Below are positions 42,284 through 46,353 of a stretch of DNA of 64,000 nucleotides, one piece after another. Numbering within the stretch: the stretch's first letter is position 1; every line of letters begins with the position of its first letter. A program made the position numbers and the translations under genes. Source of the DNA: a virus. The notes below the pieces were generated by a model, which ran no database searches, was not told where the DNA came from, and worked only from the letters and a program-made list of their open reading frames with translations. Location: the IMG/VR virus record IMGVR_UViG_3300025876_000016; one strand, written 5' to 3'.

Positions 42284-42332
42284 TTTATTTATTATTAATG
42301 GGGGCAAAAACACCTCTGCCCCCTGTAAGGAA

Positions 42333-45654: not shown

Positions 45655-45924
45655 TTAAGAGAAATCGTAACTATCAACACGAAACGCATATCCTTCTTTT
45701 TCTAACGCTTTATTAACACAATACGCTATGTGGTATGGGGGTTCGCTGTCATATACTTCATCAAATTTTTCTTCAATTTTTCTGCAACCTATTTTACACA
45801 TTTCCGTAATTAATTCGGCTGACACTTTTTGCTGACCTTTAATTTTACGAATTACTTTTTTAACTAAACTTTGACAGGCTTTATTTCCTGCCTTTGTAAA
45901 CATTTCATAATCTGAATAAATCAT
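45655..45924 (-). CDS. Hypothetical protein
   Basis: Intact ORF downstream of a hairpin. Confidence 0.55.
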   Translation of the reverse strand: MIYSDYEMFTKAGNKACQSLVKKVIRKIKGQQKVSAELITEMCKIGCRKIEEKFDEVYDSEPPYHIAYCVNKALEKEGYAFRVDSYDFS

Positions 45925-45988
45925 AATTATTTATTTTAAATAAAAAAAATAGGAACATCTTACCCTGCTCCTTTGGGATTAATAATTG

Positions 45989-46124
45989 TGGGGTGTGCGG
46001 AAGTCGAATCCGCAATTAACCACGTTGGTAGTATTCATATTTTACCGACAAGGCTCTATTGTTGTTCCTCTTAAATAAGATTTCCCACATTTCCATAGAT
46101 TTACTGTTCACCTTGTAACACCCC
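45989..46124 (-). ncRNA. 136-nt tRNA-like RNA with an enlarged internal domain
   Basis: GGGGTGT/ACACCCC acceptor, discriminator A, GCGGA-TTCGACT-TCCGC T-arm; no canonical anticodon arm. Confidence 0.55.
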
Positions 46125-46137
46125 AATTTACGTTTAA

Positions 46138-46353
46138 TTAAAATTCAGTTTTTAAATTTTCAATTTCGTTTTTTAAATCCAACGTATCAGAATTTAAAAT
46201 TTCATCGAGCATTTGCCCTATATTATTAATTGTTTGTTCTCTTGAATTTCTAATTGCTGTTTCCAACGCTCCCTCACTCTCCAAATCAGCATATTCATCG
46301 TACTTCAAACACCAACTCGCAAACACTTTTAATTTTTCTTCAGTAGTTGCCAT
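46138..46353 (-). CDS. Hypothetical protein
   Basis: Intact ORF. Confidence 0.5.
   Translation of the reverse strand: MATTEEKLKVFASWCLKYDEYADLESEGALETAIRNSREQTINNIGQMLDEILNSDTLDLKNEIENLKTEF

Follow-up and report, generated by a model that had tools for sequence, protein, structure and literature searches.

A non-decoding, tRNA-framed phage RNA with a near-invariant core

What does a phage do with an RNA that keeps the top half of a transfer RNA (tRNA) and has lost decoding? The question is raised by a 136-nucleotide (nt) element at positions 45989–46124, minus strand, of the virus record IMGVR_UViG_3300025876_000016. The whole 64,000-nt stretch that was analysed is called the window here. 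An earlier note, made from the letters of the window, had described a tRNA mimic with perfect acceptor and T arms and a rebuilt interior, lying in a gap between genes. Both arms are present on the minus strand: GGGGTGT/ACACCCC followed by A (46118–46124 and 45989–45996), and GCGGA-TTCGACT-TCCGC (45997–46013). The element is intergenic, as described, and starts 13 nt past the stop codon of an open reading frame (ORF) at 46138–46353. The explanation that we favour, and consider probable on balance, is a non-decoding phage RNA built on a tRNA scaffold. It would be processed and stabilised by the host through its tRNA frame, and its core would bind a conserved host factor early in infection.

A family with a covarying tRNA frame

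On its own, the window gives modest support for this element. The folding z-score is −2.15, and a 7-base-pair (bp) acceptor with a T arm within 200 nt was found in 8 of 100 shuffled windows. The doubt left by these statistics was removed by covariation among homologues. A pattern built on the acceptor and T loop retrieved two syntenic metagenome homologues (L059 and L067). An interior pattern retrieved L144, whose interior starts in the same way and whose acceptor and T stem differ in sequence and still pair. The pattern AGGTGANNAGTAAATYTAYGG matched 33 IMG/VR contigs. The tRNA-framed RNA is complete in 30 of these; in one (L292) the T loop is a variant, and two are cut by the locus end. Six further contigs came from look-ups of neighbouring proteins, with one near-identical copy and one partial copy. 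The family totals 33 IMG/VR and nine metagenome contigs, with RNA lengths of 135–226 nt. All covariation and invariance counts below rest on an alignment (A2) of 19 distinct members.

In this alignment, 99.8% of the cells in the modelled acceptor, P2, P3 and T stem are paired, and only 37–51% are paired in slid controls. Changes on both sides were seen in 15 of the 24 pairs, a count matched by none of 500 shuffles. They are distributed over the acceptor (7/7 pairs), the T stem (5/5) and P2 (3/7). The acceptor and T arm are thus kept as structure, not as sequence. Judged by these comparisons, the element is a real, conserved small-RNA gene of an uncultured phage. The family model R1 scores the window RNA at 131.6 bits, by construction, over the 136 nt up to the discriminator A.

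From 5′ to 3′, the RNA begins with the acceptor strand (46118–46124) and one linker base at position 8 (46117; U in 16/19 members, C in 3/19). These are followed by the 5′ strand of P2, ACAAGGT (46110–46116), at the position of the D arm; the inner four pairs of this helix are invariant. The note had given P2 as CAAGG/CCTTG, which is present and extends to seven pairs, ACAAGGT/GCCTTGT. A 10-nt bulge, GAAMAGUAAA (46100–46109), separates P2 from the 5′ strand of P3, UYUAU (46095–46099), which pairs with AUAGA and corresponds to the TCTAT/ATAGA stem described earlier. The segment GGHAA-UGU (46087–46094) is invariant except at H. It leads into a hypervariable insert (46060–46086) that measures 26–81 nt across the family. 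The TCTT/AAGA stem noticed earlier lies in this insert; it exists in the window RNA and is clade-specific. The 3′ strands of P3 and P2, ATAGA-GCCTTGT (46048–46059), close the arm, and here AUAGAGCCU is invariant in 19/19 members. Then come a hairpin at the position of the anticodon arm (P4, 46027–46046), a linker, AACGUGGUUAAUU (46014–46026), containing GG and an invariant AAU ahead of the T stem, the T arm with its 5-bp stem and UUCRA loop (45997–46013; variant loop in L292), and the acceptor 3′ strand with the discriminator (45989–45996). The discriminator is A in 14/19 members and G in 5/19. The next base (C74) is C in all members printed.

With no fixed anticodon arm, the RNA is not a decoder. 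The D position is occupied by a 69-nt irregular arm, with no D stem of 3–4 bp carrying GG in its loop. At the anticodon position, P4 has 4 bp and a 12-nt loop in the window in place of the canonical 5 bp and 7 nt. The GGTA/TACC hairpin described there does exist, and nearly all members have some hairpin at this place; in the window it is weak, and the minimum free energy fold prefers another local hairpin. In relatives P4 measures anything from about 12 nt to about 100 nt; it is tiny in L281 and reaches the upper figure in L280. No anticodon is conserved in it, and the anticodon position is free. Compared with the canonical tRNA family (RF00005), the 7-bp acceptor with its discriminator and the 5-bp T stem with a UUCRA loop are present, and the D stem and anticodon arm are absent. 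The view that the top half of a tRNA was kept and decoding lost is borne out by the covariation and by this lack of a fixed anticodon arm.

An intron-containing, spliced tRNA or a decaying tRNA pseudogene could also look like this. P4 loops of four members contain Leu-type triplets, some deletions produce ARAGORN tRNA-Leu calls, and the GCCCAAG acceptors resemble those of tRNA-Leu. Under model R1 the best-scoring true tRNA is the T4 tRNA-Leu (25.9 bits), and a tRNA-Leu ancestor is plausible. The family nevertheless differs from class II tRNA-Leu: a canonical D arm is missing, neither a 7-nt anticodon loop nor the discriminator is fixed, and there is no RF00005 match. With the window RNA, L059, L067 and L144, ARAGORN called no tRNA after any of 1339 single deletions, and its calls for other members are inconsistent (Leu, Ser, Stop or none). 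Conservation is highest at the supposed intron ends, and the compensatory changes exclude decay. The proposal of an intron-containing tRNA in the earlier note is accordingly rejected, and we regard a spliced or decaying tRNA as extremely improbable.

A near-invariant core in unrelated phages

The favoured explanation of a host-binding RNA depends on the interior. Core positions 12–38 and 66–74 are invariant at 33 of 36 sites in the 19 distinct members (mean column identity, 42%), and this sequence, placed where a tRNA has its D arm, hardly varies between unrelated phages. The search itself could impose such invariance. However, 14 invariant core sites lie outside the pattern AGGTGANNAGTAAATYTAYGG, the AAUGU of the GGHAA-UGU segment was not imposed by it, and AUAGAGCCU was imposed by no core pattern. 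Scans that left P3 or the bulge free added chance matches and no further members. The 'rebuilt interior' of the earlier note holds a near-invariant core that cannot be seen from the window alone; the interpretation given in that note is partly supported.

Contigs that carry the RNA (32–93 kb) each have 0–1 proteins in common with the window, and not one protein family occurs in every carrier. Genes within 4 kb of the RNA are clade-specific. We found no conserved phage partner protein among the carriers; no phage protein accompanies the RNA. Shine-Dalgarno motifs precede 0–7% of the ORFs in some carriers, including the window, versus 38–53% in others. This split indicates that the carriers probably belong to different host groups. 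For the window phage itself, whose AT-rich DNA has about 30% GC, the motif is found on only 1% of ORFs, and TAnnTTTG boxes, a promoter type known from Bacteroidota, occur in intergenic regions. Together these suggest a Bacteroidota host. At the syntenic site, near relatives of this phage have no copy of the RNA. Since the carriers are unrelated, the neighbours clade-specific and the near relatives without it, the RNA is a mobile accessory gene whose sequence is tightly constrained, and it has no evident phage partner. A near-invariant core in such unrelated phages suggests the binding of a conserved host molecule.

Catalytic and ligand-binding RNAs typically have variable peripheral arms around a sequence that is invariant even at paired positions. 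The core could therefore be a ribozyme or a small-molecule-sensing module that the tRNA frame merely presents, since it is invariant even where paired and its peripheral arms vary. Neither a ribozyme nor a riboswitch in Rfam matches it, and there is no conserved downstream gene or expression platform, so that we consider this reading unlikely, though it deserves some weight.

A plain tRNA decoy is a rather unlikely alternative as well. Here the elbow and acceptor would soak up tRNA-binding proteins or anticodon nucleases. Both parts are structurally conserved, and defences that cut tRNA are common (PMC13434031). The decoy leaves the invariant core unexplained, though, and the loop at the anticodon position, which has no fixed size, is the most variable part of the RNA. 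The last point makes the anticodon-nuclease decoy proposed in the earlier note unlikely. The near-invariant interior, shared by unrelated phages, points beyond its other proposals, elbow mimicry and a processing signal.

Several observations weigh against the explanation of a core bound by a host factor. The members were found through core patterns, so that members with a diverged core would be missed, and all of them are metagenomic. P3 shows no two-sided changes, only C-G to U-G, and is unproven by that measure. The core is no closer to Escherichia coli 16S, 23S and 5S ribosomal RNA or RNase P RNA than shuffled sequences are. The change that links the T loop to the linker, discussed below, is a single event, and we found no example among natural tRNAs, and no paper, of a GGCAGCA T loop (the idea of an A18/G55 contact). 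Finally, invariance fails to separate binding from catalysis or ligand sensing.

By inspection, we found no support for two structural readings of the core: an 11-nt tetraloop receptor and an interdigitated double T-loop, a module described for RNase P, the T-box and the L1 stalk (PMC4810234). Such a module has a U-A-closed pentaloop, UGNRA, that faces a second T-loop strand; the core has UGAAA in 12/19 members and UGAAC in 7/19, and AUAGA is probably paired in P3.

Proposed maturation and elbow, and the closest known RNAs

How would the RNA be made? Directly 5′ of it there is no promoter-like box, and the closest upstream intergenic TATATTTG lies at 50596. The RNA is therefore likely to be released from a long early transcript. 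In the proposed route it would be transcribed within an early operon of small genes, its 5′ end would be cut by host RNase P, and its 3′ end would be trimmed by the host and given CCA. CCA is not encoded in the window RNA (A-C-A-A), nor in the one canonical tRNA called in the window, a tRNA-Arg(UCU) at 56492–56566 on the minus strand (A-C-T-A). Conservation of C74 is suggestive of maturation by tRNA-processing enzymes. The sequences point to no conserved charging identity: the acceptor varies freely in sequence, and either A or G stands at the discriminator, even on the same acceptor (L279 versus L294).

The RNA lies within a run of small, co-oriented minus-strand ORFs, ahead of a terminator-like GC hairpin. 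This setting, close behind a stop codon, would also suit a cis-acting processing or stability signal, by which RNase P and 3′ trimming split an early polycistronic transcript and the excised RNA is a by-product. For that role the top half alone would suffice. The neighbours are not conserved, and in some members a TATAAT box stands about 7 nt 5′ of the RNA (L198), which suggests a transcript of their own. We hold a purely cis-acting role to be quite improbable.

In tRNA, the T loop pairs with G18 and G19 of the D loop (PMC4810234). Two GG candidates for this contact exist in the family, one in the GGHAA bulge and one in the linker ahead of the T arm. The linker reads like a D loop, without a stem, and has GG in 21/22 members. 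In the exception, L292, the linker reads UAG and the T loop is changed as well, to GGCAGCA; its sister L280 has UGG with UUCGACU, and GGUAA is kept in both. As linker and T loop change together and GGUAA does not, the comparison favours the linker as a relocated D-loop strand and the candidate partner of the T loop. Pairing of the T loop with this UGG strand would form the elbow and stabilise the RNA.

The weakest step of the favoured explanation follows. The core, exposed as two purine-rich bulges on P2 and P3, would bind a conserved host macromolecule, most likely a protein. It would act as an aptamer or decoy that aids host takeover or blunts host defence, and the RNA would move between phages as an accessory gene. 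A more far-reaching form of this explanation is possible and is put forward tentatively: a mobile RNA effector, with a tRNA scaffold, a transposed D-loop strand and an invariant aptamer or catalytic core, directed without a phage protein partner at a target conserved across bacterial phyla. It would be an anti-defence or takeover factor of a new class. If the core does inhibit a conserved host factor, it would add to the short list of RNA-based phage effectors.

The closest precedent is T4 species 1 RNA, and the family is of that kind and separate from it. Species 1 RNA is rnaC (NC_000866, 70908–71046; L143, 1409–1547), 139 nt long and annotated as a 'small, stable RNA'. In their predicted folds, the two resemble each other in near-equal length, a terminal stem, a long irregular helix at the D position that opens with AGG/CCU, one hairpin, a canonical T arm and the lack of an anticodon. 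In contrast to the family, rnaC obtains no score with model R1 at E-values up to 1, and an rnaC homologue lacks every core motif. It lies in a tRNA cluster and has BLAST homologues in enterobacterial phages, whereas members of the family mostly stand by themselves between small early genes. The annotation of one rnaC homologue, in Enterobacter phage SonariX (L360), gives part of it as tRNA-Met, which is probably a mis-call of the 3′ half. We know of no function assigned over decades to tRNA-shaped phage RNAs like T4 species 1. The present family is more tractable than most of them: its freely varying frame is separate from a small invariant core, found in phages that share no proteins and apparently infect different hosts. 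This split gives direct controls, as core mutants can be compared with frame mutants, and L280 and L292 form a natural pair for testing an elbow built from a relocated GG strand.

The tRNA-like domain of transfer-messenger RNA (tmRNA) has an acceptor and T arm, a stemless D-loop-like strand and a large non-tRNA interior, and the family has the same parts. It differs in having no tag reading frame and no pseudoknots, in its length, and in the position of its GG strand, which is 3′, not 5′, of the insert. The alanine identity pair of tmRNA, G3-U70, occurs in 1/19 members, the window RNA having G3-C70 there, and neither ARAGORN in tmRNA mode nor Rfam gave a match. A tmRNA was rejected on these grounds.

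YrlA RNAs join a tRNA-like module to a conserved non-tRNA helix, as the family does; they mimic tRNA, occur in phages, are cut by RNase P and gain CCA (Chen et al. 2014, PMC4201824). The RNA could thus be a Y-RNA-like partner of host Ro60/Rsr, with GGUGAAMAG near its 5′ end in place of GNCGAAN0-1G, a loose likeness, and Bacteroides thetaiotaomicron has a TROVE protein (the search control). The motif differs in that its C is an invariant U here and the spacer is 2 nt. The arms follow the order of a tRNA and not the permuted order of YrlA, and there is no RF02553 match. No TROVE gene was found in 26 carrier contigs, eight of them at least 90% complete, and PHROGs comparison of the window neighbours showed no such family. 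A YrlA-type Y RNA is rejected, and partnership with Ro60 in a wider sense is very unlikely.

As far as searched, which does not extend to the 8495 candidate RNAs from IMG/VR listed by Fremin et al. 2023 (PMC10690425), the family is uncatalogued. Rfam (gathering and E-value thresholds) and ARAGORN (default, relaxed and tmRNA modes) gave no credible match for it, and the window RNA is not called as a tRNA; the routine tRNA-class match that the earlier note had considered was not found. BLAST of four members or their cores against isolate phages and plasmids gave chance matches only; those to cr126_1 and a Clostridium plasmid were checked and rejected. The core pattern, with two mismatches allowed, was not found in the 401 genomes searched from the phylum of an Owenweeksia metagenome-assembled genome (G028). 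No isolate phage, plasmid or sampled bacterial genome among those searched carries the family, and the literature search returned no paper naming the motif.

Neighbouring features and other tRNA-like elements

The upstream ORF (46138–46353, minus strand) encodes 71 amino acids of unknown function and is syntenic in near relatives both with and without the RNA. An ORF for 89 amino acids, also of unknown function, lies downstream (45655–45924, minus strand). Proteins encoded in the window include RecT, an amidase, sugar-nucleotide enzymes, a UvrD-like helicase and a nuclease of the PD-(D/E)XK type.

The terminator-like hairpin in the 3′ trailer (45951–45972, minus strand; 45951–45980 when listed with its hairpin family) is outside the RNA family and absent behind distant members. 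A theta (hepatitis delta virus-like) ribozyme in this trailer was rejected by inspection, as the hairpin has no P3/L3. Similar GC hairpins stand upstream of early genes at 42300, 44269, 47387, 48300 and 49410 (minus strand). In most of them, CC or CCC lies within a few bases on the 5′ side and could pair with the loop GG(G)T as an H-type pseudoknot (5 bp in L067).

Other enlarged tRNA-framed RNAs of 125–144 nt have GGGGTGT acceptors and intact T arms and are unrelated to the core described here: L001 7748–7873(−), L003 3178–3303(−), L027 185–309(+), L034 182–306(+), L002 4551–4691(+), L025, L029 and L071. The D arm is normal and the variable arm giant in several of them, and ARAGORN did not call them where tested.

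A second tRNA-like element lies at 49800–49878 (minus strand) of the window, with counterparts in L264 (8239–8310) and L267 (4000–4072). It has a 9-bp acceptor-like stem, a UGG D arm, an AT-rich arm with no usable anticodon and a 4-bp T arm, and it matches the tRNA-Sec model weakly (27.9 bits, E = 0.0046). It is kept in relatives without the 136-nt RNA, inside a conserved non-coding block. The stretch at 49760–50600 (minus strand), about 0.8 kb long and downstream of the TATATTTG box at 50596, has little coding content that is credible. Conservation in L264 and L267 is about 90% over at least its 3′ 200 nt, and it may be a larger non-coding RNA.
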